A DNA stretch of 58,861 nucleotides, counting the filler, from Dirinaria sp. TL-2023a (Eukaryota), in NCBI GenBank assembly GCA_051941275.1. It is 4 parts of 4 records of this genome, joined end to end, with 100 filler letters (N's around TTAATTAATTAA, not from the genome) between each part and the next. Parts side by side here need not be neighbours in the genome. Positions count along the whole stretch, not along the records: positions 44,258 to 58,861 come from JAVEBF010000594.1; 3 more parts are not named here. One strand, given 5' to 3'. How positions within the stretch are numbered: position 1 is the stretch's first letter; each line of letters starts with the position of its first letter. The translations under genes were made by a program, and so were the position numbers. The notes beneath the pieces are model-generated. The model saw only the letters and a program-made list of their open reading frames with translations. It was not told the origin of the DNA and did not search any database. Shown here in pieces: positions 14,771 through 58,861 of the stretch.

Positions 14771-14792
14771 AGATGATGAAAGAGGTTATGTT

Positions 14793-35812: not shown

Positions 35813-36314
35813 GTTCGTTCCACCAGTGAAGTGCCTTACTGCAGATTACTGTACCCCTCGTGCCTATGGACAGGTTAGAAGGGCGATTACCTAAGATACG
35901 GGTTACCTTATGTTGTCTGACCTCGCCAACCTGGTCTGACATCCTGATACCGTCACCGCCACAATTGTTAATCCGGCACCAGCGGGACGAAGGTGGGTAA
36001 GGACTACCTTACCTTACCTCTTAAGGTACATTGCCTTAGGTACCTTACTTTACCCTACCCTTATCTTACTCGCAGCCTAACGAGCGAGCGTGCCTGCCAG
36101 CCTGGTAAGGTCCCGTTAGTGTAATGTATGATTCATCCCTTGCAACAATCAGTCTTGGCGTCAGAGCGAACAGGGATCAGCAGAGCCACATGAGCTTCTG
36201 CAACAATATAAAGCAAAGGTACATGTAGGTAATACTACGCTCATTACGAAGAAAAGTTTCGCTCTCGCCAGCTTTCCATTTCCCTCCCCAGTCTCTACAT
36301 TTCCTGATTCTAAG

Positions 36315-36984: not shown

Positions 36985-37321
36985 TCGTTCCAAGGTCTGG
37001 GTGGCCAAATTGTTCTTTGGAGTTGCTGCATATCATGAGCTTGAAAAACCAATAGAGTACACCAGCAGTACACGATCGATGTCAAAAACCTCTTATTACT
37101 TGTCCAATCTATGCTAAATGATCGCAAATGACGCAGGGAGCAAGCCTGGAGAAACACGATGCTATCTAACAAGGTCGCGAACACCGATCGAATCTGCAAT
37201 CGATGACTTGCTCAAATGTGGTAGTGCTGTGTTGTGAGAATCACATATCCAGGCGCTCATGGGCCCCTATATCCAAGCCAGCTGCTACTATGAAAGATAA
37301 AAAAAAAATGAAGCCTCATCA

Positions 37322-40300
37322 TTAGCTGAGCGCTGCGTACTGTATCCCCTGTGAGGCCGAGACTGTACCAATCTGCGACTTCGGGTAGCAGTTGGCTTGG
37401 TTGCTCCCTACTGGGTACCCAGTGAAGGTCACAGCCACGCAAGTGTTGTAGGTACTGCAGTATGTCAAGCAGCCATCAAGCGTATGCGCCACCGTGGATA
37501 AAAGATCGTTTCCTGTGATGGTTTTATTGCAGCCGATTGTGTAGCTATTGCCAAAGGCGTCAGTAATTTTTTGCCCGTCGTCTTGTGTACACAGCTGCTG
37601 GTTGCTATTTGCTCCCGTCGTTGTTCCGCCATTGACAGGAACACCGCTATATACACCGTCTGCTCCTGCTTGGTCGTCGTAAAACCGAAAGGTCGAGTAA
37701 GGGTAGCAATTGGACTGTGTCGTCTGGGCCCCATCCAGATAGGTAACCGCAGCGCACCCTGAAAGGATATCACAATATTCAATGCATTTGCCGAATGTAT
37801 CAGCATGCGCTGCATAAAGATTATCCCCATCGATATTGCGACCGCATTTGACTTCGAACGTTGTGCCGAAGACATCAGTGTAACGTGTGTTGTTGTTAGC
37901 GGGGCAAGTTGGATTGGTCAAGGTAGGCTCTGCTGATGAGCCCGTGCCTGTGCCTGTAGCAGACTGAGTATTCTGGACTGCATGCGTTGAAGATGTACTA
38001 CTCTGAGTATTCTGGACCGGGGCCGGCTGACTGGTAGAAGAGCTGCTTTGCGACGTCGAGCCAGAAGAAAGCTGATTGGAATTGGACTTGTAAGCACTAT
38101 ATTGGCCGTTCTGGTTGTAATTGGTGGACGAGATACTGGATTTGAGATAACAGTTACCGCCAGGATTTCCGTCGCCCCAGGTGACGGCCACACACGACGC
38201 ATCATTCGCCGTCTGCGGACTTGGCACATAGTTGTCGCATGCAGCAATACAGGCTTGGAAGCTGTCCACGTGAGGTGAAATAAGATCCGTCCCGTAGTAG
38301 CTGGTGTTGCACTGGATGGTGTATGATGCTGACGCACTACTAAGGTATTGTTTACCGTCATACGCTTGACAAGGGTACTCAGGGCTGGATGGAGTCGCAG
38401 CGGATGAGCCGGCGGATGAGGTTGTGGTCGCAAGGGGGGATGAGGTAGCTCCAGGTGGACTTGTGGCCGTCTGACTGTAAGTATCCTGGCCCAGAGACTC
38501 ACTCTGTACATTCTGTGGTTGATAACTGATCATACGCCCACTCTCGATGCCTCCATCGCCATAGTTGATCGTTGTAATTGCATATTTCAGGTAGCAATTG
38601 CCACCCACATTACCGGCCCCGTAACTGGCTGCAACGCATTTTTTACCATCAGCAACGCTCGCCGTGGGTGTATAATTATCACATGCAAGCAAGCAGTCCG
38701 AGAAACTGTTTACATGCGGTGTTGTGAGGTCGTTGCCGGGAAAATCAGTCCCGCAATAAACTTGATATTGCTGACCCGATGAATCAGTGTAAGTGCCGGG
38801 AGTGCATGTGCCACTCGAGCTCGTAGGCAAAGGTGATGCAGAGCTACCTGCGCCTGTAGAACTCAAGCATGGCCCGCTTTGACAACCATCGCCACAGTGG
38901 GCGGCGTCGCTACCGCAGTACTATCAAATATCAACTGAAGGTTTCTTTTCACATCATCAGGAAAACTACTTACGCCGTACTGGGAGCAACAAGATCCTTC
39001 CGGCCAATTGCCGCAGATTGTGTTGCCATTATTCACGCCACATGTGCCATCAGTGGTTTGCTTGCCTCCAGTGTTACTCGTGCCTGGAGAAGTCGAGCTC
39101 GAAGGTGAAGGCGATGCAGAGCCCCCTGCGCCTGTGGAACTCAAGCATGGCCCGCTTTGACAGCCATCGCCACAGTGAGCGGTATCGTTGCCGCAGTACT
39201 ATCAAATATCAACTGAAGGGCTCTTTTCACATCAGAAAAATACTTACGCCGTACTGAGAACAGCAAGATCCTTGCGGCCAATTGCCGCAGATTGTGTTGC
39301 CATTATTCACACCACATGTGCCATCAGTAGTTTGCTTGCCCCCAGCAGCACTACCTGCGCCTAGAGAAGTCGAGCTTGAAGGCGAAGGCGATGCAGAGTT
39401 ACTTGCGCCTGTAGTAGAAGTCAAGCATGGCCCGCTTTGACAACCATCGCCACAGTGAGCAGTGTCGTTACCGCAGTACTATCAAATATCAATTGAAGGG
39501 TTTTTTCACATCAGGAGCAATACTTACGCCATACTGAGAACAACAAGATCCTTGCGGCCAATTACCGCAGACTGTGTTGCCATTATTCACGCCACATGTG
39601 CCATCGGTAGTTTGTTTGCCTCCAGCAGCACTACCTGCGCCTGGAGAAGTCGAGCTCGAAGGCAGAGGTGATGCACCGTTGCCTGCGCCTGGAGACGTCG
39701 AGCTCGCTGAAACAGGATTTGTTGAAACAGATGATCCGGTCGCTGCTGTGTTTGCTGGTGTGGTCGTTTGGCTACCTTGGCCTAGAGACTCACTCTGAAC
39801 GTTCTGAGGGTTATAGCTGACCAAACGTGCACTATCTATGCCTCCGTCACCAGAGTTGATCGTCGTTATCGCATACTTCAGATAGCAATTGCCACCCGGA
39901 TTGCCCGCCCCATAACTAACTCCAACACAGGGCTTACCGCCAGCAGCGTTCGCATTAGGAACGTAGTTATCACACGCGGCCAAGCAATCGGCGAGGCTGC
40001 TTACATGCGGTGTTGTCAAATCATTCCCGGGGAAGTCAGTGCCGCAGTAGATTTGATACTGCTGACCCGATGCATCAGTATAAGTGCCAGGAGTGCATGT
40101 GCCGCTCGTAGGCAAAGGCGGTGCGTTGCCTGCGCCTGCGCCTGTAGAGGTTGAGCCCACTGGACCAGATGATCCGGTCGCTGTATTCGCAGATGTGGCC
40201 ATCTGAGTGTTGGTACCTTGACCCAGTGACTCACTCTGTACGTTTTGAGGGGTATAGCTGATCAAACGTGCGCTATCTATGCCTCCATCACCTGAATTTA

Positions 40301-42629
40301 TGGTTTTAATTGCATATTTGAGATAGCAATTGCCACCCGGATTGCCAGCTCCGTAACTAACTCCAACACAGGATTTACCACCAGCAACGGTTGGGTCGGG
40401 AACATAGTTATCACACGCAGTCAAGCAATCTGCGAGGCTGCTCAGATGCGGCGTTGTCAAATCATTTCCCGGGAAATCAGTTCCACAGTAGACTTGGTAC
40501 TGGTGCCCTGATGAATCACTGACAACACCGGGTGAGCATGCAGCACCGGGTGAGATCGTGGGGGCAGGCGTAGTGGCCACCGTGCTCGAAAACGTCTGCG
40601 TTTGCACACTCGTCACAGGAGACCCGTGAGGCTCGGTCGTCACCAAAGTGGACGTAGTGGTCCCAGCGATGACGCTCGAACCGCCCACTGGAGCCGCCGA
40701 TGTAGTTGATGTGACGAATGAAGAGCCTCCAGAGTCCGTGGTGGTGTACTGAACCACGGTGGACGAAGGGCTCGAAATTGGGAAGGTCGATGTAGTTGAC
40801 GTGGTATATGTGGAGCCAGAAGAGTCCGTGGTAGTAATTGGGATGACAGTGATTGAGCGGCCAGAACCCGGGAAGGTCAGTGTGCTTGAAGTTACATATG
40901 AATGGCCAGAAGCGTCCGTGGTGGTATATTGAACTATACTTGTTGAGGGCCCCGAAGTTGGGAGGGTCGATGTAGTTGAAGTGGTATATGTGGAGCCAGA
41001 AGCGTCCGTGGTAGTAATTGGGATGACAGTGACTGAGCGGCCAGAACCCGGGAAGGTCAGTGTACTTGACGTTACATACGAGTGGCCAGAAGCGTTCGTG
41101 GTGGTATACTGAACTATACTTGTTGAGGGACCCGATATTGGAAAGGTGGAGGTGCTTGAGGTAACATATGAGTGACCAGACGCGTCAGTAGTAGTGTACT
41201 GGACGATACTTGTTGTCAAGGGGCCCGAAACTGGAAAATTTGAGGTGCTTGATGTTACATATGGATTGCCAGAAGCGTCAGTAGTAGTGTATTGAACGAT
41301 ACTTGTCGTCAAGGGGCCCGATGCTCCGAAAGTCGAGGTGCTCGATGTCACGTATAGGTTGCCAGAAGCGTCAGTAGTAGTATACTGGACGATACTCGTC
41401 GTCAAGGGGCCCGATGCTCCAAAGGTCGAGGTGCTCGATGTCACGTATGAGTGGCCCGACGCATCGGTAGTAGTATACTGAACGATCGTTGTTGAGGGGC
41501 CCGGAACTCCGAAGGTCGAAGTGCTTGAGGTCACGTATGAATGACCCGATGAATCGGTAGTAGTATACTGAACGATAGTTGTTGACGGCCTCAAAACTCC
41601 AAAAGTCGAGGTGCTTGATGTTACGTATGAGCGGCCTGATGCATCGGTAGTAGTATACTGAATGATAGTCGTTGAGGGACCCGGTGGCAAGGTCGAGGTG
41701 CTTGATGTCACGTAAGAGTGGCCCGATGCGTCGGTAGTAGTATATTGAACGATAGTCGTTGAGGGCCCTGGAACTCCAAAAGTCGAGGTGCTTGAGGTCA
41801 CGTAAGAGTGGCCGGATGCATCGGTAGTAGTGTACTGAATAATAGTTGTTGAGGGGCCCGGAGGAAAAGTCGAGGTGCTTGATGTTACATATGAGTGACC
41901 AGATGCGTCGGTAGTAGTATACTGCACGACCGTCGTTGAGGGGCCCGAAAGTGGAAAAGTCGAGGTACTGGATGTCACGTATGCGTGGCCAGAAGAGTCG
42001 GTAGTGGTGTATTGAACCACTGATGTTGAATATCCAGAGCCTGATGAGCACGTCGGGCAATGGTATACAATTCCATATCGTGGTGAACCGCCACACTCAG
42101 ACGCGTTACCGGTACACTGCGTAGAACAACCGTATGTGCCAATGTCCGCCGGCGGTCCAGCAGGTGCTGAGGATCCGCATGTGCACTCGTCGCCTAAGGT
42201 AGTCAAGTAAGCAACTATAACCTCAAAACGGGATATACGAGATACCGTTCTGAACTGCAAAGTACGCAGAGCCTTTGCAAAATGAAGCACAGTATTCCAG
42301 AGTCATAGATGGACTGGTTGTTCGCGCTCCATCAAGAATGGATCCGGATGGTCCAGCGTCAGAGCATCCATCAAGATCGTAAGTGCCATAGGGACTGTCG
42401 ACGGTCTGACCCAGGGTAGGCGATCCACTATAGATATTAGTCAAGAGTACTATCCAGCGCATCTATGAACAGCCTACCTGCCAGAGCCAGCGCCAGCTCC
42501 AGAGCCACTGGGGCCCGGGAACGCACCAGTAGTACACGTGGGAACCCTAACAGTCACTTTAGTGACAGCTTGAGCCAGCACAGCAGGGTTGAGTAGCCCG
42601 AGGGCAACACCGAGATGCGTGGTCCTCAT
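37322..42629 (-). CDS. Large secreted carbohydrate-binding / adhesin-like protein: signal peptide - WSC - 15 Thr-rich repeats - 2 PAN/apple - 3 hevein (CBM18) - 4 PAN/apple
   Basis: Signal peptide MRTTHLGVALGLLNPAVLAQA; WSC 'MTLEYCASFC..YFAVQNG|DECTCG..CSTQCTGNASECGG'; PAN-like 'YQVYCGTDFPGNDL...DCL.ACD...CVGVSY...NCYLK'; CBM18 'DGTCG..NG...CG.WPQGSCCSQYG|YCG....CGDGCQSGPC'. Introns near 42430-42477, 42195-42245, 39479-39527, 39199-39247 and 38921-38973. Confidence 0.85.
38865..39700 (-). repeat. Three tandem ~280-bp units, each a hevein domain plus its own intron
   Basis: Intron 3' ends at 39479, 39199 and 38921 (periods 280 and 278); intron sequences are clearly homologous (gtaagta...caNtTgatatttgatag). 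Confidence 0.92.
40680..42030 (-). repeat. Coding minisatellite: 15 units of 87-93 bp encoding (P)ST(T/S)IVQYTTTDASGHSYVTSSTSTF(G/P)xxG
   Basis: Counted directly in the translation of ORF 39489..42290. Confidence 0.93.
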
Positions 42630-43369
42630 TGCAAGACAAGAGACAGCCTAACAGTCGAAGCAAGAAGACATGTATGGATTAATTTTAGAACACGAAATGC
42701 AGCGTGCAGCTTGACTCTTGGTAATTAAAGAATAAGAAGAAGTGTCTTTCGAAGAGAGTATCCGGTTGGATAAAAATACGATGGAGCAAAACAAGAACAA
42801 ACATAATGAAATGAGGTTGGAGACTTCGGAATGCTTTGGAATGGTAAACATCGCGCTGGGCGGCCAATCTCTAGCCTCCTAGCATCGACTTCCATTCCTT
42901 TCTGCTTCCGGCAATTTGGATGCTCAAGTGAGAAATGTTCGATTAAGGAAAAGAGAGTAGAGAGGCTGGTGTGCCACATGGCAACGTCCATTCTGATTAG
43001 TATGCAATTTCACGCACGTTTCTGGCCCAAAGGTAAGAGCATGCGCTGACTCTGGACCAGTCCAGGAATGCTCGAATCCTGAAAATAGATCAGTCATTCG
43101 AGATTCGACTTCTAGGAAGGACGAAGTCGGAAATCGCTGGAAAACTACATGAAATTAAGGACAGGACACAGCTAATTAGGGGGGCGACACCAGCAACTGG
43201 ACCGTCGGCGATGCTTGGAGCGAGGGAGTAACTTTCGCTCGACCATGGATCAATCAACCATACTCGAATTCACCAGATGACACTTCGAATAGTTCAAATA
43301 TACACTTGCTCGCTGAGCTCTTTGCCATGCTAGGTCAAGGAGTAGCCAAAGTGGCTCTTTCACTTCCGC

Positions 43370-44157
43370 ATGGCTTTCCCACCATGCAAACAATGCTTTC
43401 AATATATCTATCGCCGCAAATCTCTGAGTAGACTTCGTGATTCCCGAGCGTTCACGTCTTATTTTTATCTTCGAAATGCTCAAGGCTCCATTTCCAGAGT
43501 CTCCGGTCGAGTGATCGAAGATGACTATGCCCAAATACGAGCCAAGTATCGTGAGCGGATCCCGATCTGGAAAGCCATTGGGATAAACGCTTAAAGGGAG
43601 GCAGAGACACCAAAGTATCCGATAGTGTTGGCTCATGGGCTGCTTGGCTTCGATGAACTCCATCTCGTGGGTCATTTGCTGCCAGGCTTGCGCTACTGGC
43701 GAGGTATCACGGAAGCCTTGACGGCAAATGGTGTCGAGGTTATCACTGCCTCGGTGCCGCCATCAGCATCCATTGAAGAAAGGGCGCAAAAGCTATGTGA
43801 AGATATCCAGAGTAAAGCCCACGGCAAAAACGTCAACATCATAGCGTAAGCGAAGTCTTAAGTCCGAAGCTTGCAAAGTACAAGATATTGAAACCTCACA
43901 GACATAGCATGGTTCGTTAAGCTAGCATTCCATCTGCAAGAACACTACCTAGGCTTACAGAGAGCTAGGGGTAAGTCTGAAACAGACCTGATAGAAATTC
44001 TGCAGGTTGCTGAGCAGACCTCATCAGCGGTCTGGACGCACGATATATGATTAGCCGCCTGCAACCCCCCAACGTCAATGTCCTTTCCCTGACCACCATC
44101 GCATCACCCCACAAAGGCTCTGCATTCGCAGATTACGTTTTCGATCGCATTGGCCGT
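43370..44157 (+). CDS. Triacylglycerol lipase (Tgl2-like alpha/beta hydrolase); truncated at contig end
   Basis: 'GRVIEDDYAQIRAKY', 'PKYPIVLAHGLLGF', 'YWRGI', 'SIEERA', spliced nucleophile motif 'IAHSMGGLDARY', and 'SLTTIASPHKGSAFAD'. Confidence 0.88.
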
Positions 44158-44257
44158 NNNNNNNNNNNNNNNNNNNNNNNNNNNNNNNNNNNNNNNNNNN
44201 NTTAATTAATTAANNNNNNNNNNNNNNNNNNNNNNNNNNNNNNNNNNNNNNNNNNNN
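44158..44257. other. Artificial contig spacer
   Basis: Same 44N-TTAATTAATTAA-44N linker. Confidence 0.97.
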
Positions 44258-44904
44258 GCTGCAGGGGAGTAACCCCTGACTATCCGGAAACGCGATGTCT
44301 CTCGTGGCGCCGGCCTTACCTAAAATACGAGTACAGAATACCCGACCTCGCTACGGTTCTCGTATCCGGCAAAGAATATTTTAGGACTTTTAAATGCACC
44401 TAAAGTAACATTCTAGCGCCTTGTCAATTAGTTGCCGTCTTCTTGGCAGCAAAATATAAACCAACACAAATAGTACAAGATGGACGTTGAAAGCACAATG
44501 TCTAGAGACTTCGGCATAACATGGTACATGGATTTGACTTCTCCACACTGACTGATCGTCGAGCGATTGCCCTGGTTCATGCCAACACCATGCTCGCTTT
44601 GCATGCACCGCGCCATTGGTCCAGCTTCCTTTCCCTCTGCCTGAAGTTCATCGATAACTGAGACTTCGTGCACCTTTCTTGGCAGACTTCGAAGGTGACA
44701 CTTTCGAATCCCTGTCATAGGTCCAAGGCGCAATCATGGGTTGACCTACATAACGTTCATGTGACGCTGCGGCTGTCGATGAAGGCTTAGAGCGCTTTGA
44801 ATCAATGTCCTATTGAAGCAGCGCCCCTTCTTGGCCATATGGCATTTGCGTATTGGCATAATTTGTTGGTTGCCTTGCTAAAGATGCAAGTAACCCCCTT
44901 TTCT

Positions 44905-47900
44905 TTAAGTCCTGTAAGCCCCGAAGGGCTTGCATCAGCCAGTTGTGACACGATGAAACCCATGGCTTCGGCCGCGGGCCGGCTATTAACGGAAAGAACG
45001 GGAGGAATGAGATCTTTGTTCATACCAATCCACATCGCTGAGCTGCAGCTTCCTGGCGCGCTGTCCGCTTCGGTTTGCGCCAGACCTGTCCGAGGGTGGC
45101 CGCGCACTCGCGTTGCTGGGTGATGCTTGACGCAGGGATGCGTTGTGTTGGTGCCTCTCGCCACCAAGACCTTGATACGGATGACTGTAAGTATTCGTAG
45201 ACTCGCACGGAAGATTAGGGTTTGGGTTGGAAAAGCAATCAAAGTAAAGATCATTGTCTATACCGCTTTGCTCCGTGCTTGAGCCTTGCAGGTCGTAATT
45301 CAAGACGAGGTTCTTGATACGCTGCTGCTCAGCTCGGTCCGCTTCCTGTTGATTCTTCATTGCAATGGCAAACTGTGAGTCCGAAGGCATTTCAATAGTT
45401 CTTGTCTACCGTAAGGTCAGCAAGAGTTGGTGGAGCGAAAATACCACGATCCCAACTCACTTGCTGCCGAGTCCCTTTCTTTGTCATCAAGGAGAATGCC
45501 ATGGTCCCTGGCGGTGTAGCCGTCCCTTCGTTGGGGCTATCCTCAGAGGCCAGAGACGCATCCTTCTGAGCGCGACGCATTGGCAAGGGAGCGTCGAACA
45601 TGGGTTTTCGATCAAACTTTCGCGAATCCAAGCTTTCCGACATCATCTTTGCCAGCTCTCGGTCGAACTCGGCTTCAGCTTCTGGATCATGCTCCTCTTT
45701 GAGTCGAGTTACAACGATGTCGTCACCGAAATCCGATTCTGCTTTGTCGTCGCCATTAACAAGAGGCTATTCAAGTAATCAGTGCGTGGTCCGTCTAGAT
45801 GTGAACTTCTCTTACTTCCGGCTCTGTCTCTTCACTGGATGAATGACCATCTTCCATATCTGGGATGGGCGCCTCGTCTTCGTCCGCCTCATCGCTTGAA
45901 AAGATACCGTCTTCCACTGGTTCAGGTTCGACGGTCTTCTCAGGCTCCTGTGTCTTGTAATTATTCGCAACCAACTCTGCGAAGGTGCGGCCAGCGTCTT
46001 CGTAACTACCAGCAAAATTCCATTGTGGTCTTGTCGAAGCATACGTATCGCGAATGAGGATCCCTATCTCCATAGGCAACCGATCCTTTGTATACAGGTA
46101 GTACTAATGGATTCGCATTAGCAGAGTAAAATCCCATTCCTCTACGCGAAAGTACCTGGAAGAAGGTCAAGAAGAAGTCGAGCCTTTTCTTCGCAGCGCC
46201 TCGGTCGAAACAGAAACCGCAAGTGTCGAGGATTGTGCACACAAGGCGGATGCGGAAGAAGTCGTTTGGAGAATCAAGTGGATTGATACGCTCACGCACT
46301 GGGGTTGCATCGGCTAAAATCCTCAGTGACAAGCTCCTTTCGGCAAGAGGCATACTCACAGTGCCCGAATCCAACAATACGGTATAGAGCATCGAAAATG
46401 ACAAAAGAATCGACCATTTTATAATTGTACAATTCTCCAAGATACTTAGCTTCAGAAATACGGCGCTGATTGTATTTGAAATCGTTTTGTTCAAGGCCTA
46501 AAGTTATGCGTTCGAGAAGGTTGTCGATACACATAATGACAAATTCTGGGTGATAACGGTAAAGAGACCCGATAGTTATTGCTAACAGATGGACATTATT
46601 GTGTTTGATTTTCTCAGGCTTGGAGAATATCCTCTCTAGAATGTCGACAACCTAGACAATATCAGTAACGGTCCACATACCACTCGACTTCCCTACCTCC
46701 TGCTCTTCCCAGTGTAGCTTCCGAATGGACTTCAAAACCTTGGGATAGTTACGCTTATTCATGTCAAGGTAGATGAGCTTGCTGATGAATATTTCTACTG
46801 GGGTCCGTTCTTTCTGCTGAATGGCGGCCCGTTCTGGCGGATTGACGAAGTAAATGGCGTTCTCGATAAGCATCCGTTCTTGGGGCGCGAGGTGCTGAGC
46901 TGCCTTCTTCCTTTGAAGTGTTTCCAAGAACGAATTTGCCCTAGGAGCGGTTTCCGGATTTCGCAAAAGGTAACGACCACAATTCTCCAGGAGATTACAG
47001 ATTATTTCAATGTTGATGCGTGAGAAATCATCTAAGCTGACTTTCAAGCAATGGAAAATTACGTGCTCAGGCACGACACCGAACTTAGTAAGCTCTGCGA
47101 GATAGCGGATGTTCCCAGTGCGTACTTGGCCTAGGAAGTCTTTCTGTTTGCGTCGTTGCAGGCTTCGAAATTCTTCATCTAGGTAAGATACGAGGCCATT
47201 TAGTATGTCGGGCAAGTACCTCCCTAGAGTAGCTACCAGCCTTGAGTACAGCGGCATCAAGTCTGATCGACCTTTGGGCACTTCTTGAACAGCCTTGATA
47301 AGGCGATTTCGCGAGGCTTTGGAATTGAGGAAGCAAAAGTCCACAGCTGCTTGATCGACCATATCCTTGGTTTGAAGGTCCGGCAGACGGACCAAAAGAG
47401 CGTCAACTTGTGCACCAACCGTTTTATTGGCGATCGCAGTAGACTGGTCGTCCGGCGCTGAAACTTCAAGCTTTTCTGACGTAGTTTTGACATCATTAGC
47501 ATTTAGAGCCTGGTCTTGTCGTTTGCCAACTTGAGAATCCTCTGCCCTTTTCCTCTTGCCGTCCTCGAGCAGAATGCCTGGCACTCGATCTTGCAGGTCG
47601 ATCAGGTTTTCATAGAAACGGCGCTCCTCCTCGTCTTCCCAGATACCCGCACCGTCTACTTGACCACGCAAATAATCCCCAGCCTTCACTAAGCCGATTC
47701 CACCTACTCCTCCCGTGTCATGCGCATCCTTCTGCTTCAGATCAGGCATCTCAGCACCGAGAACGTCACATAGTACCTGAGCATTGGCGATCATTCTCTC
47801 CTGGGCTTTAAATTGTCTATCATAATTGGCTTGTCGGTCCTCGAATACCTCGCCAGACTTGACATATGCTTCGGCGTTGCGCTTTGCTTGATTTGATATA

Positions 47901-48976
47901 GACTTCTGACAGCTGAGAAGGTGCTTTTTAACATCCTCAAAATAACGTAGGAGTATGCTCCGAAACCGCTGCTGTAGTTCAGACGTAGTGAGCGGGGGGT
48001 CATCCACGGCAGTGGGTGTTTGCGCATCCTCATCAGCAGAGCTTTGATCAGTTTCACTGGCAGCGGCAATCGCTGGACCATTTGCTTCGACGGTCCTAAG
48101 TCCCCCTTCAGCTGTGGATCTAACTCCCAGAATATCCCATGCAAAACTTTTAATGAACTGTACAACAAGAGGTAGATTCGAATGTTCCCTATCGTGTCCT
48201 AGAAGATCCTTTAACACTTCGAGAGGGAAGGGCTCTGCATCCGAACTTTGAACCGTTTTCGTTACGCTCTGCCCGGGCTTGGATTTAGTCATCGCTTCAT
48301 TCAATTTACTATGAGCGGGGCCGATATTTTCCTTGCCTCGAGCGGTTGCGTCTTCGGGCCTAGCTACATCGTCCAAGCTTCGGAGTAAGCCAACCAGCCA
48401 TAATTCCGTTACGACTCTCAGCAACACTCGCTGGCGGATGAGCCGTTCCTTCTCTTCCTTCTCCCTCGCATCTTGGCCCAGCGCTTTTAACTGCGACTTC
48501 TCCGGGGTACTAAGACCCCTACCAAGGAGCCATCCGAGGTAGCAGGTGTAGTCTGCGGGGCCGAAACGCTGGTGGAGGGCACTGACAATTTCTACACCGG
48601 CCGCAACTTCTCCAGGAGTTTTAAGCCTGCATAGACCTTCGTAGCTCGCTGAGATAATTTCTGAGAGGTACTTCTGTAACGAAAGTGTCCGTATCTCTTG
48701 TAGGAAAGTGGGTGCACTCGTAGCAGTGATGGCTGTTCGTAGACGTTTAATGAAAGCTGTATTCTTTTTCAGAGATGAATCTAGATTTGTATTGATAGAG
48801 AAAATGTCTGCAAGCACTATCAGCATGGTTCGTGTCCGAGCAATGCATCAAAACCAACCATTCTCGCCCGCCCATGCCTGGGAGTTAATTTCGCGCAATT
48901 CGCCTTGAGACGGGTCATCAGCGTCCGCAAGCCTCCAAATGTCTGGGGAAAGCTCACGCTTCGTTCTGCGATCCAT
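44905..48976 (-). CDS. UPF2: Nonsense-mediated decay factor Upf2/Nmd2
   Basis: MDRRTKR start; MIF4G motifs 'LDSSLKKNTAFIKRLR', 'IWEDEEERRFYENL', 'RYLAELTKF', 'LLENCGRYL', 'KYLGELYNY', 'FFRIRLVCTILDTCG'; C-terminal 'EQQRIKNLVLNYD...LQLSDVDW'. Stop at 44905 if the last intron is spliced, 44986 if it is retained. Confidence 0.93.
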
Positions 48977-49554
48977 GCAACTACTACAAGTTAGGTAGCT
49001 TCCAAAAGCCAATTCCTGGGGTGTTCGGGTATGTCTCAAAATCTAGGAAATTGCAACGACTTTGTCGCCACAAGCTGCAAAACTTTGACTTGCGGAAACG
49101 GGGGCATTGGTCCTGGATGTGATGCATACAGCAGATTGATTGGTTAAAGTAAGATCTTACGAAATTGCGCAAGGTCCTAACAAGAGCGGAGGTATGTTTA
49201 CACCCTAGGCACATGTAAGGTACCTTATGTTGAAGTACTGTAGTGGGTTCGCAATCGATAAAGCAAGGCGCGAGGATTATGTAAAGTACATAACTAGCGC
49301 AGTCCGTTACATTGATCTGCAACAGGGGTTTGATTTTAGGTAAATCGCGCCTGAGGGAGAGGGGCAGCTGAGTTTTTTGGACTCTTCACATGATTACCAT
49401 TGTGTGCTGGGTAGCAGGATTCGCATGATAATTATGCACTAGATGTCTAATGAGCAACTCAACACGTCTGACACTCTTCCACCATCCATGTCAAATCTTC
49501 ATAATAAGGTGACCGGCTTGTTGGGGCAACGCCGCTGCCGTCGTTCGGTTAGCG

Positions 49555-52202
49555 ATGCCTTCCAGGCCTTCCAACAGTTCAACATCGGCGCGAACCCATA
49601 TCAATGATATTCGACCTGTGCAGACATCGCCAACTCTACAGCCATTCTCTGGTTCCTCCTCGCACGGGTCTGCAAATGCTTATGGACCCAGTGGCTATCC
49701 CGCTTTCACCTCCCAGCAAGACTCCGAGAATAGCGCATCCACTACCCTAGAAAACTCCACAACAGCATCAGCCAGGGAACGGCTCGTCGGTAACTATCAT
49801 CAGCTCTGCGGTGCTACTGGGTGTAATGGAAAGGGGAGCGGAGAATGCGAGCATGGGGCACTCTCTCCACATGCGCCAAGCCCGCACAGGGAATGGGACA
49901 ATCCAATAGACAGGGCAATGGGTAACTACAACGGCAAATCCTATCCCGGCGGAGGAGACCTCATACACGGCGCGTTAGGTGACAGTCTGGCGAATGATTC
50001 GTCAATGCGGCGGAGGGGCAACGACAGTAGCGACAACCGGGGTGTGAGCAAAATAGGTCCTGCAGAGTGGCTTGCGAGGCCGTATGCTGTAAAAGGAAGC
50101 AGAAAGATGTATGTACAGTTGAGAACCTTTCCACATGGAGCTTTGCCCTACAATACTTTTTGGGTGTATGCCGGGCCCCTGGAGCGCGAGCTAATCCGCG
50201 TGCTATCAGGTATTTCATATACTATTTCCCATTCATGCAATGGACTGCCCAATACAAATGGTCATACTTACGTGGCGACGCGATCGCTGCACTTACCATG
50301 GCATCATTTTACCTGCCAATGTCCCTTTCCTTGGCCTCCAATCTCGGACACATTCCGCCAATCAATGGTTTATATTCATACGTTTTCAACCCAATCATCT
50401 ATGCGCTCCTGGGGAGCTGTCCTCAGTTAGTTGTTGGTCCAGAAGCTGCAGGATCACTGCTAGTCGGACAAATGGTAAAAATACGTGTTGACAAGGGAAC
50501 CATAGGCGACGAAGACCAAATGATGAATGCGCGAGTTGCCGGTGTGGTCACTGGTATGGCTGGCGCTGTGATCTTCATTGCTGGCTTGACCCGCCTAGGA
50601 TTCTTGGACAGCGTTCTTTCCAGGCCTTTCTTGAGAGGGTTTATAAGCGCTGTTGGATTTGTCATACTGGTCGACCAGCTAATTCCTGAGCTGGGACTTT
50701 CGCGGATAGTAAAGCATGTCGGCTCAGTAGCTCATGGTAGCAGCATAGACAAGATCATTTTCCTATCCGAAAATTTGCGAGACGTTCACGGCCTGACTGC
50801 TAGCGTTTCTTTTGCTAGCTTTGCAATAATAATGGTTTGCAGGTACGAGTAAAATCCCTGCATACTCACCCTTCGTGTTTAACTTTGTTGGTGCTACTTA
50901 TAGGGAGGTCAAAAAGCGGCTACAGCCGCGCTACCCTACTGTGGCCTATCTCCCGGATCGTTTCATCGTCGTCATCCTCTCAGCCCTTTTTACCTGGAAA
51001 TTCGGCTGGCACAAGCAAGGCCTCGAGATTCTTGGTGACGTTCGTTCTAGCACCGGATCTCCTTTTCCTGCCCATTTCCCCTTTGTCCCGTCTCATATGG
51101 GACATGTAAGGGAGGCCATGAGCACCTCATTCTTGATTGGTCTTTTAGGCTTTTTCGAATCATCCGTGGCCGCCAAAAGTTTAGGAGGCGGGGAAGGAAA
51201 GAATAGAGACGGACTCCAAGGAATGGCGTTGAGTGCCAATCGTGAGCTCGTGGCTCTCGGCGTTGCGAACATCGTTGGTGGATGTTTCATGGCTTTACCC
51301 GCATTCGGTGGCTATGGTAGGAGTAAGGTGAATGCGTCTACTGGTGGCCGTACGCCCATGAGTAGCATATTCCTTAGCCTCATCACCATTATTTCTATCC
51401 TCTTCCTCTTGCCGTATTTCCACTACCTTCCCGTGAGTTGTCTCGGCCAAAGCCCTCAAAATCACAAGCTGACGCACGCCAGAAAGCGGTTCTGTCATCA
51501 ATGATATCCGTTGTGGCATACTCACTAGTTGAAGAAGCCCCCCATGATATCAAATTCTTTGTTCATATTCGCGGCTGGCCCGAGCTAATGCTCATGTTCC
51601 TCATTTTTGCTGCTACCATTTTCTACTCACTTACCCTTGGTATTGCACTCGGTGTCGGGCTCTCTCTTCTCTCGGTGATTAGGCATGCCACGAAACCGAG
51701 AATACAGATCCTAGGCAAAGTTCCCGGCACCGACGGGCAATTTGAAAATGCGGAAGCGAATCCTGAGGCATTGGAATTTATCGAGGGTTGCTTAATAGTC
51801 AAGATACCAGAACCTCTCACATTTGCTAATACTGGGGATCTCAAAAGCCGATTACGCAGATTAGAATTATACGGCACTACCACCGCACATCCAGCCCTCC
51901 CCAGGGTTCGCGACCCAGAACATAACCAGAACATCATCTTCGATGTTCATGGTGTAACAGGATTGGACGGATCCGGAACACAGGTCTTGGCCGAAATAGT
52001 GGATAGCTATATTAGCAGAGGTGCTCGTGTATTCTTTTGTCGGGTGCCAAAGGAGACCAGCCCGGTCTTTGGTATGTTTGTAAGAAGTGGCATCGTCGGC
52101 AGATGTGGAGGGATGCGGCATTTCGTCCGAAGTGTGGATGAAGCTCTTAGGATGACTGAGCTCGAAAGCCTCTCGGAGTCCTACAGGGATGAGCCAGAGT
52201 AG
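49555..52202 (+). CDS. SulP/SLC26 anion (sulfate-type) transporter with STAS domain
   Basis: 'GDAIAALTMASFYLPMSLS', 'GLYS', 'VVGPEAAGSL', 'NRELVALGVAN', 'PAFGGYGRSK' and STAS 'IPEPLTFAN...FDVHGVTGLDGSG'; 3 introns. Confidence 0.92.
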
Positions 52203-52629
52203 AGCGGAAGCTCAGGCCATGTGAAAACAACGATCTTTGACATCTTCACCAATGCTTTCACTGGGTATATCTCCAAGTCTTATTGACCCTGTAGACGAAA
52301 CAGGGGATCTCAGAGATACGTGTCTGAGTCTACCAAGTACTTCGCTCTACCTGCATTGGCGTGTAGACCCACAAGCGTCCTTTCCCTTCTTATCTTACCT
52401 TACCTACATCCTTACCTTACCTGTGTTACATTAACGAACGCTACCTGAGTACCTTAGGTACCATAGGTACCTTACATAATCTAAATTTCTTAAAATCTCT
52501 CTGATCACGGTACAACAACATACAGGGAAAATCAAGAAGTCGGTCTGCTCTGCCGGCAGCAGTTATATTTTTAGCGTCTCGGATTGTGTTCTAGTTTCTC
52601 GTATACATCCTGACTTACAGCCTCTCAAC

Positions 52630-54404
52630 ATGCGTTTCCTCTATCTTCCAATTCTTACCATAGCGCATCTTGTGAACAATACGTGCGCGAAGGCTACTGC
52701 GCAGAGTATTCTAACTTCGCTGGATTCAGCATCAGTCCTACACTTCACGCTCAGCCGCCGTGGAGGGGCCTTCTCTACTACACAGCCGGAGCATGATTGG
52801 GTAAACCTCACCTATATGGTTCAGCAGCTGGAGCGGACAGAGTGCAGATACAGTCTTACCAAGCGTGAGGCCAAAGGCAATAAGCTTGTACGGAAGGCCA
52901 AAGCAGACGAGACTGGAGGGAAGGAGCCTGGTTCCTTGATGGGAGATATCGCGGCCAATGGAACTTGGTAGGGCAGCCTCGATAGCAGCATGGTTACAAG
53001 TACCTGACGAGCACTCCTAATAGGTTCGCTAACATAAAAATCGGCGACCCTCCACAAGAGATTGAACTAGACCTTAATATGCTTGCATCGGATTTCTATG
53101 TCATAACTACCTCGAGCAAAAAGGGGAACAAATTTGACGACTACTTCTCCAAATCCCACTGTAAGAGACCCCACAAGATAATTGCGAGACCATCAGACGC
53201 TGACACCAGCCATTTCAGCCAAATCGTTGGATCATCCATACCCTGGTTGCGGTCAGCCATCGGATCTTTTTTATCTCCCTACCATTAATCGCTCATTGCA
53301 CCTCTCCTTCGTTTATTGTCGACCACAAAAATTTACACGACGGACTCTGGGCCCATCCGGTAGTGCGCTAGGCCTCGCTCCATCCGCGCATTTAAAGCAG
53401 ACACAATCTTCATCGTTCATATCACAGTTACTAAAGAATGCTATCATTGAGCGGCCCATTTTCTCGCTGATGCTCGTCAACGGCCAACAAGGTGTATTGA
53501 GTATTGGTGGCACTGCAGCTTCAGCGGTCGATCTAGTCACCCAACAAACTAGAGATGAACTGGATCGGGTTGGAGCTTTGGAAGAAGGGAAGGTGCCGGT
53601 CATCGCTACTACCGACTTGTCAGTATCGAAAGGAAAAAGCTCGGCCCTCTGGCAACGAGGTCGATCACACGGAAGTGAGATCGGCATTAGAGAGGTGGAC
53701 TGGCGGGATGAGTGGAAGTGGAGCCATGTTCAAGGGGCTGAAGGCTGGTGGCAGATGCTGATGCAGGGGGTCTGGGTTGACGGCAGTAGAGTTTTGCAGA
53801 ATCAGGCAGCCGTCATCGATGTCAGTCTCGACTCGAATTGTCTTTCGCACTGTTAACACACTCATAGATCAACAGCCCTTTCATTCTGGCTCCTCCACAC
53901 GCCGCCAAAGCCTTCTACGCTTCCATGTCCGGCTCGCACCCTCTTCCATTTCCATACTCCAACTTCTACGCATTCCCCTGTCTCAATCCACCCGCGCTGC
54001 ATTTCGAATTCGCTGGCGCTTCCTTCCCCGCGATGCATGGTGGACGTGGCGCAGATTGGTCTGATGTTCCGGGCGGTCGATTCAGCCTCGGTAGATTAGA
54101 GAACGGTAGTGGATACTGCGTGGGCAGCGTCGTGGAGACGGCAATGGGCATAGGACAAGATAGCGATGAGCTGCTAAGTCATGTTCCAAACGAGCCCCAC
54201 ATAATAACTCCGCGAAGGAGCGTCGGAGGGAACGGCATGCGAGATGTGTGGGTTATTGGAGAGGGCTTTTTTCGAGGCGTTGGGGGTGTGTTCGATGTAC
54301 GTCGTCTCCTTCTCCTGTCACAGCAAACAAGATCTACATGATATGTACTGACCGACACCACCAAATAGCTTAGAGAGCAGCGAGTGGGCTTTCGCTCATA
54401 CTGA
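52630..54404 (+). CDS. Secreted pepsin-like (A1) aspartic-protease-fold protein with degenerate catalytic motifs
   Basis: Signal peptide; 'WFANIKIGDPPQEIELDLNMLASDF', 'LGLAPS', 'IFSLML', 'GVLSIGG', 'AVID|INSPFIL', 'WVIGEGFFRGVGGVFD|LREQRVGF'; 4 introns. Confidence 0.82.
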
Positions 54405-55114
54405 AGGTACATCATAGCGCTAGCCTCAGTTCGGGACCGAGGTATTAGGTATTCGATCAAGAGATCTCGCGCCTTTCTACACCATAATAAAATCACTTCG
54501 ACTTAAATAGTCAGGCACACGAATTGTACAAATCTATGACGTTCAAGGCACTCCCTTGATCCCATTAGAGTAGCTGGAAGGAAATGGCGTGACAGACATC
54601 ATGTATCAGACAGGACAGCTAATGGTTCTGGTTATCGACATTTTGAGAATTTTGCGTAGAGTAGCTGATGTGCACAGAGCAGATACCTTATCTGTAGTGC
54701 GCCTTCAGAAGGAAGTTTATTTTTTCCCTATCTATGTTTTATTTCTTGTAGTTTCCCCCCTCCATGGGATCTACCTCAGTAAGTACCTTACCTAGAGACC
54801 TCACATTACCTTACGAAGAATCTCAGGTACTTAACCTTACAGTACCTGAGTACGTATAGAACTACATTATTAACGACAGGACCAGCTCAGCTGCAGCATA
54901 TGACGACAGGGTTTCAGCCTAACTGAAGCGAGAATCTTGGATTCAAACCACGAATCAATATCACATCCTGTTTCTTTCACTCGACTCCCCTATCCAACAC
55001 CCTCCTCTCTCCGAAATTGAATTGTCTCTGCATCGCAGAAATCTGGAAAAATCATCATTACCACCATCACTATCAGATTCCAATTCGGCGGGTAAAATAA
55101 CTCTCAGTGTGACG

Positions 55115-56107
55115 ATGGCACCTCCGGCACATATCCCTCTAGGTCAGAGGATGATGCACCTCGCTCAGACCCTGCAGTAAGCTCATCCGTCTAGCACTTC
55201 TCACGCTGTTGGCGTAAGGTTGACCCTTGCTAGATTCGGGTGGTTCGTCGGACACTTGACGCTATTGTTCAGTTCCCTCCGTTACGCCCTATCCTATATC
55301 ACCTTCCACCCTTACTCCCGCTGGGCCCGCTTCTCCTACCGTACAGCTTTTGTCGCTGCCGCAGCAACATATGGCATCGTCGTCTACAAAGCGTTTCGTG
55401 CGCGCGCACGTTCCGGAAGTCGCCAGCAGGGCGGTGCGTTGGCCATAGCCGGCGATGAAAATGTCCAGTATCTTGGTGCGTACACAACTCCTCGTTTGTT
55501 CGGGATGAACCCACATGGAAACAGGCACATGCTGATATCAGTGCGTGATTCTGTAGGTATGGCACTGGTTTGGCTGTTTTCGCGTCAAATCCCTCTCGCC
55601 CTTCTACCCTTCATGGTTTACTCCATTTTCCATGTTGCGACGTACAGTCGTACCAATCTCTTACCCACCTTGCAACCTCCACAGCAGACGTCTAGTTCGG
55701 CCTCTCCTGGCGGTCGGCCAACCACCAAATCGTCCCCTACGGCAGACACTATTGGCCGCTTCGTTAAGGAGTATTACGATGCTAGCATGATGCTCGTTGC
55801 AACACTTGAGCTTTCACTCTGGTTCCGCATCTTGTTCTCCGCTATCATTTTGACTAAGGGCAGCTGGATCCTCCTTGTAATCTATACGGTCTTCATCCGC
55901 GCCCGCTACAGCCAAAGCAGCTTTGTTCAAGGTGCAGTCGCGCAGCTTTCAAGCAGAGTGGACGCATTCGTCGCAGGACAAAGTACACCTCCAGTTGTTC
56001 GACAAGGTTGGGACACTCTTAAAAACATGGCTAGACGAGCCACTGATCAGACCGACATCAACCGTTATGCAGGTGCTCAGCAACCAGGCATGAAGAAGGC
56101 GCAATAG
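55115..56107 (+). CDS. POM33: TMEM33/Pom33/Per33/Tts1-family ER / nuclear-pore membrane protein
   Basis: MAPPAHIPLGQRMMHLAQTLQ|FGWFVGH, 'TYGIVVYK', 'DENVQYL', 'LLPFMVYSIFHVATY'; introns about 55177-55232 and 55476-55556. Confidence 0.88.
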
Positions 56108-57061
56108 ACGCACTAGCAACAAGGTCAGAACCGTGAGAACCGTCAAGAAGTCCCTCCCGTCATTATAGAGTTTCTGCAAAGACGATGAGGGGCTTTGCAT
56201 CACTGACTGTCCACTATTGCGAAAGATCGAAATCACGGACTAATATGTGGGTGGGTTACCGCGGAAATTGAAGGGTCCCACTAGCAGCATGAAAAGCTAA
56301 TTAGTCAAGAGTACCTTGAAGGGCTTCTGCTGCAGCAGTAGTCTTTTTCCTTTCTCCTTGGCTGTCTCGTGAATTACCGTTCCCTGGCGTGCCTGGTATT
56401 TAGAACCAACTTCGGACTCTGCGAATACTGTATAATATAGCGTTATTACTTCATAAAGATACGCTCGTCACAGAAGTGAGAGATACTCCATCTATGTATC
56501 CCAAATTAGCTTCCTTGTAACTATCGAATGTGTAAAATTCTCGGCGAGATGTTTACACCCGAGGTGCGTAAACGTTATCTTTGCTGATATTCAAGACACC
56601 GGCCCCTTCCTCATTGCGCGACCGGAACTCAGGCCTGATCGTAGCCCATCACGTTCCACGGAACCAAATAATTGAGTCACTCTGTCCGCATGATCGTGAA
56701 AACGGGAGAGAACGAATCCTGCTCTACCGATCTGCCCACTTATGAGATGACAACTCCATTATTCGATCATATTAGAAGAGTCAAGGGAAATTCCATTCTG
56801 ACTAATTTCTTCGATTCCGTACTCTTCTAAAACAAGTGTATGACTTTTTTTCCATGAAAGAGAGTGACTAAACTAACTGAACAAAGGCTTGACACTATTT
56901 GATCTAATATAAGAGACAAATCAACACGAAAATCTATCAAACAAACGATACGAAAAATTGAAAACTGATTGCGAACATGTTTATTTTGAGCTCATAAAAA
57001 ATCATGTCGAATGAGAAACGAAATTTTGTAATGATTGTTCTGTGAAATGTAACAATTAATT

Positions 57062-57359
57062 TGTTACGACCCTGTGCTGGGACATACCTTATGTATGGAA
57101 TTCTGGAGCACAGGTACGTATCATGATCAAGGTCACCAGGGCTCTTGACACTTGAGCGAGCTAGCGGAGATCACGTGAGCAGATCAAGAGGATCAAGATG
57201 ATCAGGGTTTGAGCAGCTTGATACAGCTTGAGCAGATCAAGAGAATCAAGATGATCAGGGCTTGAGCAGCTTGATGTAGCTTGAGCACTTAGCGCGAGAG
57301 AATCAGTATATAGATTTTCAACACGACGTTCTTCTGACATCGTGTTCAACACCTTTACA
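57062..57359 (+). repeat. Putative 5' LTR (~298 bp) with an internal ~53-bp tandem duplication
   Basis: TG...CA ends; gagcagatcaagag.atcaagatgatcaggg.ttgagcagcttgat is duplicated at about 57177-57286; TATA-like at 57307; hairpin aacacga...tcgtgtt at 57320-57346. Confidence 0.7.
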
Positions 57360-57654
57360 ATAGTCATCTACTGCTCAGTGTAACTTGTATCTTATTGTGA
57401 TACTTACTTTATCACGTTGACACTCGTTGTTCTAAGACTTGAATCTCTTCGAACAGATCAAACTCTAGCATCTTATATTAGACACCTGAAACTCTAAATT
57501 GATAATAAAAAACGCAACAACATTGAACATCCTTAAAAATATTTGTCTCAGAACAACGTAACTCTGTTTCAAACATTATCGACTCAACAATCTCTCGCGA
57601 CTCAATCAACAATGAACGTAACGACGATGACAAGATTAAAATCAACAAATCTGA

Positions 57655-57872
57655 TATTAGGACCGGTGCAGAGCAAGTCAATGCAGGTATAGTTAACTAA
57701 GGTATTATTACTAAGGAAGGAAGAAGAAGGAAAACTAGATACAATAGGGGGTCCCGGGTATATATGCGTGTGTGCGGGTGTCGGGTAAACACCCCGATCG
57801 GGTTAGCGTATTACCCCTGAGAACCCTGGGAGGTGTTGCCCCAGGTAGTATACCAGGTGCATGCTCGTAACA
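57655..57872 (-). mobile_element. Nested solo LTR (218 bp) of a second retroelement family
   Basis: Ends read TGTTACGAGC (minus strand, from 57872) and TATTAGGACC (plus strand, 57655; mutated TGTTAG), forming imperfect terminal inverted repeats; abrupt composition change from the flanks; interrupts gag. Confidence 0.7.
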
Positions 57873-58861
57873 ATTTATATGACAAATCAGATCATTTCGC
57901 GAGAAATTGTCGAACTAAAAACGCGATGTCTAAAAAACAATTGAATGTGATATTAAAAAAAGACATATCTGACGATGAAAAAATCTGCAACGATGATATA
58001 AACTCGACAGAAAATGCAGTACTCACGTCAGAGAAAAAATACTATTTGATGAAGAATCTCACAATATTTCAACAAATTCTGAATGAGATCAGATCAGACA
58101 CAGCATCTGTCTCGACTCAAAAGATTAATACGATTATCGAACAAAAACGACAACAAGATTTCGACAATAAATTTGAATGAAATAACGACGTATTTCGAGA
58201 ACTAAAAAATCGAGAATTCGTTCAAACAAAAATTACGAATAGATTTGAGAAAATTCTAAACAGCGATGCGACTCAGAAACGAGAAATTTCGAGACAAGAC
58301 ACATTAGTGTTAAATCGAGAGAATGCGACTGTAGAATTACAGAAATGAACGACGTGCTGCGAACATCACTGCTAAATGCATCAACAAAAGAGATGCGACA
58401 ATACGATAAACAAACTACGACGCGCAGTATAGAAAAAACAATTCGAACATTCAGAAATCGCAGCAATCAGATGTTATAACAGAGAGTGCGTAACACATCA
58501 GCGAGAAAAAATCGAACACGCGAGTGTACATTGATCAGATTGTTACGACGACGCATGCATGACTCATTATGACGAGAAATACGAAATCAACTAATTTTCG
58601 CGTGAGTCAAAACAAAAGAACTCGAGAAAAAACAAAACATCTTAATAAAGAACGTATTGAGAGAGTGCAACATAACAATTCAAAAACAAATTAATGTAAC
58701 ACAGCATGTTTACATTCTCAAAACGTCAATATGAATTAACGAGAAACGATCAACGACAATGATCGATTCAGACGTAATAAAGAATTTTATGACGAAACAT
58801 TTAGCAGAGCAACATAAGTTTGTTACTCAGACGAAAAATGACGTTTACGATTTAATAACAG

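Follow-up and report, generated by a model that had tools for sequence, protein, structure and literature searches.

The last 1005 bp of a 58,861-nucleotide stretch of DNA from Dirinaria sp. TL-2023a (assembly GCA_051941275.1; the whole stretch is hereafter called the window) contain neither a CC nor a GG dinucleotide, and they belong to what, judged from its reading frames, is a dead, internally deleted copy of a Ty3/gypsy retrotransposon. A graded loss of the same two dinucleotides was found in 59 distinct copies of a related family recovered from metagenomes. We read this signature as the product of a defence that resembles repeat-induced point mutation (RIP), takes CC as its first target, and is not flagged by the classical RIP indices, and we give this reading a probability of roughly 0.6.

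Dinucleotide signature and direction of change

The final CC or GG of the window begins at position 57856, and none is found in the 1005 bp from 57857 to the window end. Given the base composition of this segment (17.0% C, 17.0% G, 43.6% A, and 22.4% T), 29.1 CC and 29.1 GG would be expected. Over 20,000 mononucleotide shuffles, the sum of both had a mean of 57.8, a standard deviation of 6.4 and a minimum of 32, and every 1-kb stretch of positions 1–56800 of the window holds at least 85. The first-pass annotation of this DNA had reported no CC or GG from 57860 onward, dozens of them predicted by composition, and CA, TG, and CG still common; all three statements hold, and the run already starts at 57857. 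Observed against expected, CA (83/74.5), TG (49/38.3), and CG (61/29.1) are abundant, with 18 TCG trinucleotides remaining. TC (54/38.3) and GA (109/74.5) are enriched, CT (27/38.3) and AG (60/74.5) are not, and TA is depleted (60 vs. 98.1, a ratio of 0.61).

The standard RIP indices miss this signature, as had been anticipated. TpA/ApT is 0.58 in the copy, vs. 0.73–0.79 in the neighbouring genes, and (CpA+TpG)/(ApC+GpT) is 1.10, so that the copy fails both classical thresholds as a passage of PMC3897900 gives them (>0.89 and <1.03, respectively). The CpC index (CpC+GpG)/(TpC+GpA), defined in the RIPCAL paper, which in the section concerned reports CpA dominance (PMC2621366), is 0 in the copy vs. 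0.83–0.88 in the neighbouring genes and offers a simple diagnostic.

When the gag frame was translated through its stops (written as X) and searched exhaustively with HMMER, 13 proteins came up at E ≤ 0.001, the best at 2e-12; they are gag proteins of retrotransposons. A profile search gave 23 hits, two of them already among the first 13 and 21 being further relatives, most with Retrotrans_gag and zf-CCHC domains. A word-based protein search with the same gag found no match within the length band of the query itself.

Columns were called conserved at ≥70% agreement among at least 7 of 14 intact gag relatives. At the seven conserved Gly columns, the window copy reads GAN (four) or AAN (three), with no GGN and no AGN; at the four Pro columns, it reads TCN throughout and never CTN; and the three Trp columns have become TGA, TAA, and TTC. 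Outcomes of the CT or AG type number 0 of 13. His codons are kept as CAY at three of three columns and Gln codons as CAR at two of three, the third being GAA, which is not a C>T change. Among the five Cys columns, three read TGY and one TAT, the fifth being unreliable owing to its position at a junction. The motifs that the first-pass annotation had singled out were all recovered, namely, the zinc-knuckle codons gac aaa tca gat cat (57881–57895), the protease DSG turned into DSD (gat tca gac, 58765–58773), and Trp codons read as TGA (TGA or TAA at two of the three columns). Its proposal that the 5′ C of CpC had been changed to T on both strands agrees with the Pro (4/4) and Gly (7/7) columns.

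In these conserved columns, a C followed by C was changed and CpA was spared, in line with TC and GA, but not TA, being in excess. The comparison therefore supports a change of the 5′ C of CpC to T (CC>TC, and GG>GA on the other strand) on both strands of the window copy, in which CpA and CpG were essentially spared, and the specificity may be strictly for this 5′ C.

Intact relatives do not themselves lack CC and GG, as Gly, Pro, and Trp together make up a normal 8.6–18.5% of residues in 28 proteins. In six other gag-like proteins (P0004, P0005, P0007, P0008, P0014, and P0015), which are 30–58% identical to the window gag, this share is 0–3.1%, with a similar content of His, Gln, and Cys, and thus other copies share the codon losses. 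The terminus of P0004 coincides exactly with the first in-frame TGA of the window copy. An alignment of seven mutated proteins was too diverse for use.

A different pattern was seen, by comparison with P0021, in P0022, a gag relative near one named from Teloschistes chrysophthalmus, which bears Cys>Tyr and His>Tyr changes and has retained most Gly, Pro, and Trp. Since this pattern is of the classical CpA/TpG type, not all lichen-related copies of the superfamily bear the CC-type signature.

A related family in rock metagenomes

A first metagenome scan, with two peptides common to the window copy and P0004, gave 596 pattern matches, none of which was confirmed. A second scan used the pattern D-K-x-x-H-F-A-R-[DN]-C-R, corresponding to the zinc knuckle with Asp in place of its first Gly, and yielded at least 120 loci. 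Among the matches listed, at least 101 loci belong to one gypsy family ('CY[SL]CDK[SL][SNDG]HFARDCR'), and at least 19 carry other peptides and have a normal CC plus GG content (0.69–1.07 of expectation). The 59 loci of the family with at least 1800 bp around the match were aligned, and 42 shorter loci were dropped; the 59 copies are all distinct, no two of them being more than 88.5% identical. The accession prefixes of their contigs match Antarctic cryptoendolithic rock metagenomes, obtained by Illumina sequencing and metaSPAdes assembly (PMC7171226), and a title cited in that paper describes such rock fungal communities as dominated by Lecanoromycetes and Dothideomycetes. Judging from one flanking open reading frame (ORF), the host of the family is probably an ascomycete.

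The loss of CC plus GG is graded across the 59 copies, from 0.65 of expectation in the least mutated to 0.01–0.05 in the most mutated, with CA plus TG at 0.78–1.05 and CG at up to 2.6. A mutation bias mainly towards CpA or CpG was not found in this family, in which C>T was commonest at CpC: with column-wise states, the inferred ancestral C is read as T at a rate of 0.71 in CpC, 0.43 in CpA, 0.39 in CpT, and 0.32 in CpG. At CpA sites, the rate depends on a pyrimidine at −1 (CCA 0.65 and TCA 0.59 vs. ACA 0.30 and GCA 0.20). A comparison that used no consensus and set the least-mutated copy against the seven relatives nearest to it gave C>T at 617 of 914 CpC (0.68), 542 of 1955 CpA (0.28), 570 of 2184 CpT (0.26), and 224 of 1514 CpG (0.15), and the lightest copy in this comparison showed 0.58 at CpC vs. 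0.09–0.12 in the other contexts.

At isolated CC sites (116 sites, 6536 cells), CC was kept in 6% and read as TC in 41%, CT in 20%, and TT in 33%, and 29–38% of the cytosines without a C neighbour were changed. These values fit a CC pair as the target, with the 5′ C changed at about twice the frequency of the 3′ C and the survivor then mutating at the background rate. Codons were also scored against P0016 as an independent intact reference. Across the family, retention was 8% for Pro codons, 4% for Gly, 3% for Trp, and 92% for Cys (TGY), and 36–40% of the His and Gln codons had turned into TAY and TAR. YpCpA is a real secondary target in the metagenome family, and not in the window copy.

C>T and G>A at CC and GG are about equal in 59 of the 59 copies. 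Since 114 of the 116 CC sites show at least two different outcomes among copies, the mutation events were independent in each copy. Relative to L023, the least-mutated copy, each of the others carries 272–567 transitions and 40–290 transversions, a ratio of about 2- to 8-fold. The longest run free of CC and GG measures 3401 bp (L017; GC content 0.23, with 254 CA plus TG and 112 CG remaining). Entire 8-kb loci are depleted, including DNA far upstream of the gag of the element, and the depletion ends within a 250-bp step at ordinary genes (L006, L022, L061, and L064). Three flanks free of CC and GG (L033:5268–8032, L026:102–2772, and L012:5485–8032) are 2.5–2.8 kb long, with 15–18% GC and 26–35 CpG each. 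Such flanks, at about 15% GC and with few CpG, seem to represent a later stage, with every context affected.

P0016 itself (source jgi, on a contig of 151,709 nt) has an apparently intact gag, in which Gly, Pro, and Trp make up 11.9%, and it shares 373 of 488 residues (76%) with the read-through gag of L023. As it is apparently intact and this similar, public data appear to hold an unmutated, possibly active member of the hypermutated family. A direct scoring of the window copy against the ancestral states of the metagenome family was set aside as too noisy at 54% identity (57 sites: TT 18, TC 13, CT 7, and other 19).

Anatomy of the window copy and its surroundings

The depletion in the window is a mosaic that begins upstream of 57857, with two islands of normal composition (57071–57259 and 57660–57856) between depleted segments (Table 1).

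Table 1. Segments of the mosaic and remnants of the retrotransposon, in window coordinates (o/e: observed/expected).
Feature	Position	Strand	Description
Depleted segment 1	56886..57070	none	0 CC and 1 GG in 185 bp vs. 7.9 expected; GA o/e 1.51
Near-normal island	57071..57259	none	3 CC and 13 GG in 189 bp
53-bp tandem repeat, 2.1 copies	57176–57287		92% identity; mostly inside the 57071–57259 island
Depleted segment 2	57260..57659	+	3 CC (all CCT) and 0 GG in 400 bp vs. 26.3 expected
CC/GG-rich unmutated island	57660..57856	none	15 CC and 23 GG in 197 bp
Depleted segment 3	57857..58861	+	1005 bp without CC or GG; gag from the zinc knuckle onward and pol start, to the contig end
CCHC zinc knuckle remnant	57878..57910	+	Y-DKSDHFARNC vs. 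C-GKPGHFAR[DN]C in relatives
gag C-terminal motif CYDDxCxxH...W	58541..58594	+	Here 'CYDDACMTHYDEKYEIN*', Trp codon now TAA
pol start, −1 frame	58687..58860	+	Protease active-site region 'TMIDSDVIKNFMT', with D-S-D at 58765–58773

The first depleted segment is non-coding as far as seen, and it is here that DNA of the normal gene type gives way to the mutated repeat block. The second presumably comprises the long terminal repeat (LTR) or leader and the first gag codons; no LTR borders could be fixed in it. Frame translation and alignment place the gag N-terminus at about 57620–57655, where 'DDDKIKINKSDI' aligns with 'DDDKIKVNKPD' of the intact relatives. The three surviving CC of this segment (57352, 57485, and 57531) each have T as the next base, and CCT is likewise the context with the highest CC survival in the metagenome family (10%, with 5% for CCA and 2% for CCG). 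In the 53-bp tandem repeat, the two full units differ at four positions, all of which are transitions and one of which is a GG/GA difference; the otherwise spared patch may have been lightly mutated here.

At the island 57660–57856, about 240 gag codons of the capsid part are missing, since in the intact relatives NKPD lies at residues 32–44 and CGKPGH at 273–287. The island, which gave no gag match in any frame, replaces these codons and is therefore taken as foreign filler or a later insertion. The island meets the gag fragment no more than about 20 bp from where the run free of CC and GG sets in. In the zinc knuckle, the Gly codons have become gac and gat and the Pro codon tca. An in-frame TGA at 58532–58534, just upstream of the CYDDxCxxH motif, stands where the alignment has the Trp of '(S)WT(A)C', and the stops in the gag frame amount to three TGA, two TAA, and one TAG.

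The matching place of the protease region in L023 reads 'AMVDSGAIGNFMT', inside its RVP_2 match and likewise in the −1 frame. In that copy, Retrotrans_gag and zf-CCHC lie in one frame, and RVP_2, RVT_1, RT_RNaseH, Integrase_H2C2, rve, and SH3_Tf2-1 in the −1 frame, which is the Ty3/gypsy order of gag followed by pol with protease, reverse transcriptase, RNase H, and integrase. A Pfam search of two window translations, including the 58-residue protease piece, gave no family even at E ≤ 10. The window copy retains the gag N-terminus, the part of gag from the knuckle to its end, and the first ~34 protease codons; because its gag motifs and its protease in the −1 frame parallel L023, it can be read as an internally deleted Ty3/gypsy element cut by the contig end. 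Repeats of 9–18 nt near the segment borders ('GTAACAATT' and inverted arms) were considered as LTR ends or terminal inverted repeats and dropped, as many equal chance matches exist; these repeats are at chance level, and the contig holds only the 5′ part of the element.

The window consists of four contigs of about 14.6 kb each (1–14670, 14771–29419, 29520–44157, and 44258–58861) laid end to end, with three N44-TTAATTAATTAA-N44 spacers (14671–14770, 29420–29519, and 44158–44257), across which adjacency is not real. The stretch free of CC and GG thus stands at the true end of a contig (44258–58861; JAVEBF010000594.1) and not just at the window edge. The remaining genes are ordinary fungal genes, including a carX/carRA/carB-type carotenoid cluster, ATG13, Slx4, and an MIF4G protein (by Pfam). 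The phytoene desaturase ORF matches, at 100% identity, an NCBI protein named from a metagenome-assembled genome of Dirinaria sp. TL-2023a; its next named relatives are all from lichen-forming Lecanoromycetes, and the host is a lichen mycobiont, i.e., a lichen-forming ascomycete, assembled from a metagenome. By Pfam, the carotenoid cluster (1368–8612) comprises an RPE65-type carotenoid oxygenase (−), followed by a lycopene cyclase/phytoene synthase and the phytoene desaturase (+), an arrangement that we take to be like that of the Fusarium cluster. Two adjacent long ORFs with PAN/Apple domains (37322–38866 and 39489–42290, −) may encode adhesin-like secreted proteins in tandem.

Mechanism, alternative explanations, and known systems

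An explanation has to account for the signature, its direction, its symmetry between the two strands, its independent origin in each copy, and its confinement to the DNA of transposons, all of which were observed. In the mechanism that we favour, an enzyme of the cytosine-methyltransferase family (a RID and/or DIM-2 homologue) would be targeted in the germ line, before meiosis, to repeated duplex DNA, and cytosines would be deaminated only inside the repeated unit. The context would depart from that of Neurospora, with a C followed by C being taken first and to completion. In the metagenome family, the loss of CC differs in degree from copy to copy, the 3′ C of CC and YpCpA are secondary targets, and further rounds would bring the GC content down to about 15%. 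An action limited to the repeated unit would explain why the borders are sharp and why two islands of about 190 bp were left untouched. RIP has length and identity thresholds of about 400 bp and >80% (PMC3318451), and islands of this size would be spared as being below the minimum length. The agent itself may be a RID-like methyltransferase or a deaminase, and the trigger may be repetition in the genome from which the window was assembled.

Several points weigh against this RIP-like reading. The CpA preference that defines classical RIP is absent, as judged from TpA/ApT (0.58) and (CpA+TpG)/(ApC+GpT) (1.10). The direction of mutation in the window rests on a protein-level comparison with relatives that are 21–58% identical, for a single DNA copy, and the element turned up just once when the window was compared with itself by BLAST, so that its repetition in its own genome is something that we infer. 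Identity between the window copy and the metagenome family, whose host is probably an ascomycete, is no more than 54%, and the two differ in pattern, the window copy having 0 of 13 CT-type outcomes and untouched His and Gln codons and the metagenome family 20% CT and 36–40% His/Gln changed to TAY/TAR. Because the scan pattern required one GG>GA change, its design left out copies that are intact or lightly mutated. The reconstruction of ancestral states presupposes the C>T direction, and common subfamily differences inflate the background rate. Finally, the unmutated islands need not have been spared for want of homology and could just as well have been inserted later.

The alternative that survives best, which we nevertheless regard as improbable, is a heterochromatin-directed methylation of transposons biased to CpC or CpY, for instance of the DIM-2 type, followed by slow deamination of 5-methylcytosine with no homology trigger and no premeiotic burst. 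It also predicts C>T changes on two strands, a restriction to transposons with borders at genes, and a grading by copy age, and a passage of Amselem et al. (PMC4352252) ascribes the CpG-type signatures of some fungi to methylation-mediated deamination. The extent of the loss in the window argues against a slow decay, as it is complete where the CC plus GG density of the related family (231 per 2244 columns) predicts about 100 sites, with the codons for His, most of those for Cys, and many further conserved ones intact. In a close subfamily, 58–77% of the remaining CpC differ vs. 40–60 transversions per ~2300 bases, which would call for a very large excess in rate, and CpG, the usual target of such decay, is enriched instead of depleted.

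A cytidine deaminase (AID/APOBEC-like or of another superfamily) that edits retroelement DNA at CC independently of RIP, for example on reverse-transcription intermediates, seems somewhat less probable still. The victim is indeed a retroelement, the changes are saturating and clustered, and CC is the target motif of APOBEC3G. Editing of minus-strand cDNA, however, predicts G>A on the coding strand only, whereas C>T about equals G>A in all 59 metagenome copies and the 1005-bp segment of the window retains neither CC nor GG; moreover, the 5′ C is preferred over the 3′ C. The 8-kb loci are free of CC and GG several kilobases upstream of gag, beyond one element, and the leader segments of the window copy are depleted as well.

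An artefact (a chimeric contig end, contamination, or base-calling error) is suggested by the fact that the stretch runs up to the end of a contig from a metagenome-assembled genome, but is hardly credible given that the depleted mosaic starts 2 kb inside the contig in continuity with ordinary fungal genes, that the stretch is readable as gag and protease with precisely the predicted codon changes, and that the signature recurs in the 59 distinct copies (Illumina/metaSPAdes, other samples) and in six independent predicted proteins. Classical CpA-type RIP, CpG decay, and TpCpG hypermutation were ruled out for the window copy by the dinucleotide counts.

RIP is a textbook genome defence of fungi, and its CpA context underlies the scans based on TpA/ApT, RIPCAL, or RIPper. 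The broader proposition, that some lichen-forming and rock-dwelling ascomycetes run a RIP-type defence in which the preference of the enzyme has switched to a C adjoining another C, seems to us to stand at about even odds. If it is true, RIP in these ascomycetes, a large group, would be under-detected by tools based on TpA/ApT, and the target-recognition part of their RID and DIM-2 homologues, or a new deaminase, would offer a natural experiment on RIP context. With a saturating CC-first signature, RIP in lichen fungi could be mis-measured, or missed in its early stages, and the determinants of context could be tested by comparing the RID and DIM-2 homologues of CC-type and CpA-type species. 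Such a signature would also account for predicted proteins without Gly, Pro, and Trp, a lack that is a practical annotation flag.

No CpC-dominant RIP context was found in the literature searched on RIP and lichen fungi; Clutterbuck 2011, which lies outside it and which passages of that literature cite for the variation of target sites among ascomycetes, may bear on novelty. In the RIP literature searched, CpC is the only dinucleotide context without a report as the dominant one, and it was seen here in a Dirinaria-like mycobiont and in a probable ascomycete of Antarctic endolithic communities.

The signature works like RIP, and we describe it as such without claiming membership in the Neurospora-type system, whose CpA feature it lacks. 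In common with the RIP of Neurospora and other Pezizomycotina, it consists of C:G>T:A changes on both strands (in the codon columns of the window copy and in 59 of 59 metagenome copies), affects transposon or repeat DNA with sharp borders, leaves graded copies, and destroys reading frames. As to repeat restriction, sharp borders were found in the window and at L006, L022, L061, and L064, with at least 59 distinct copies in the metagenome family and no second copy in the window. Unlike in Neurospora, both the window copy and the metagenome copies favour CpC and not CpA (0.71 vs. 0.43 in the metagenome family; the indices given above in the window), and TpA is not enriched. CpC is the least-used RIP context in Neurospora. 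A kingdom-wide survey of 2025, covering more than 1,200 fungal genomes, states in the part relevant here that RIP-like defences share the CpA preference (PMC12543289), and the signatures given by Amselem et al. 2015 (PMC4352252) are CpA, CpT, and CpG only, the term 'CpC' being absent from the paper.

APOBEC3G shares with the present signature the CC dinucleotide as target and a retroelement as victim. It deaminates the 3′ C on minus-strand cDNA, which appears as GG>AG on the plus strand only. Here, in contrast, the 5′ C is favoured (0 of 13 CT-type outcomes in the window, and 20% CT-type vs. 41% TC-type in the metagenome family), the strands are equal, and flanking DNA outside the element is affected.

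The TpCpG hypermutation of transposons in Pucciniomycotina (Microbotryum, Puccinia, and Melampsora; Horns et al. 2012, PMC3318451) is likewise a lineage-specific, RIP-like hypermutation of transposons at a motif other than CpA. Its target is TCG and its hosts are basidiomycetes, whereas the window copy has an ascomycete host, CpG is spared here at up to 2.1–2.6 times the expectation, and the window copy shows no loss of CG (61 vs. 29.1) or of TCG (18 left).

The closest setting is that of lichen fungi, in which strong RIP with sharp borders and, in Cladonia, RID and DIM-2 homologues are described in passages of PMC12542154 and PMC13486527. The reports on Cladonia rangiformis and Xanthoria concern the same or a close host group and describe AT-rich transposon compartments with sharp borders. 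In the portions of this literature that deal with Cladonia, Xanthoria, and Helitrons, no dinucleotide context is given, RIP being defined in the Cladonia and Xanthoria reports by GC content or standard indices, whereas here CC is the first and saturating target. Copies of intermediate GC content are read in passages of these reports (PMC12542154, PMC13486527) as having undergone fewer rounds of RIP, and the compartments of C. rangiformis at 10–20% GC, as given in a passage of PMC12542154, resemble the flanks at 15% GC of the metagenome family.

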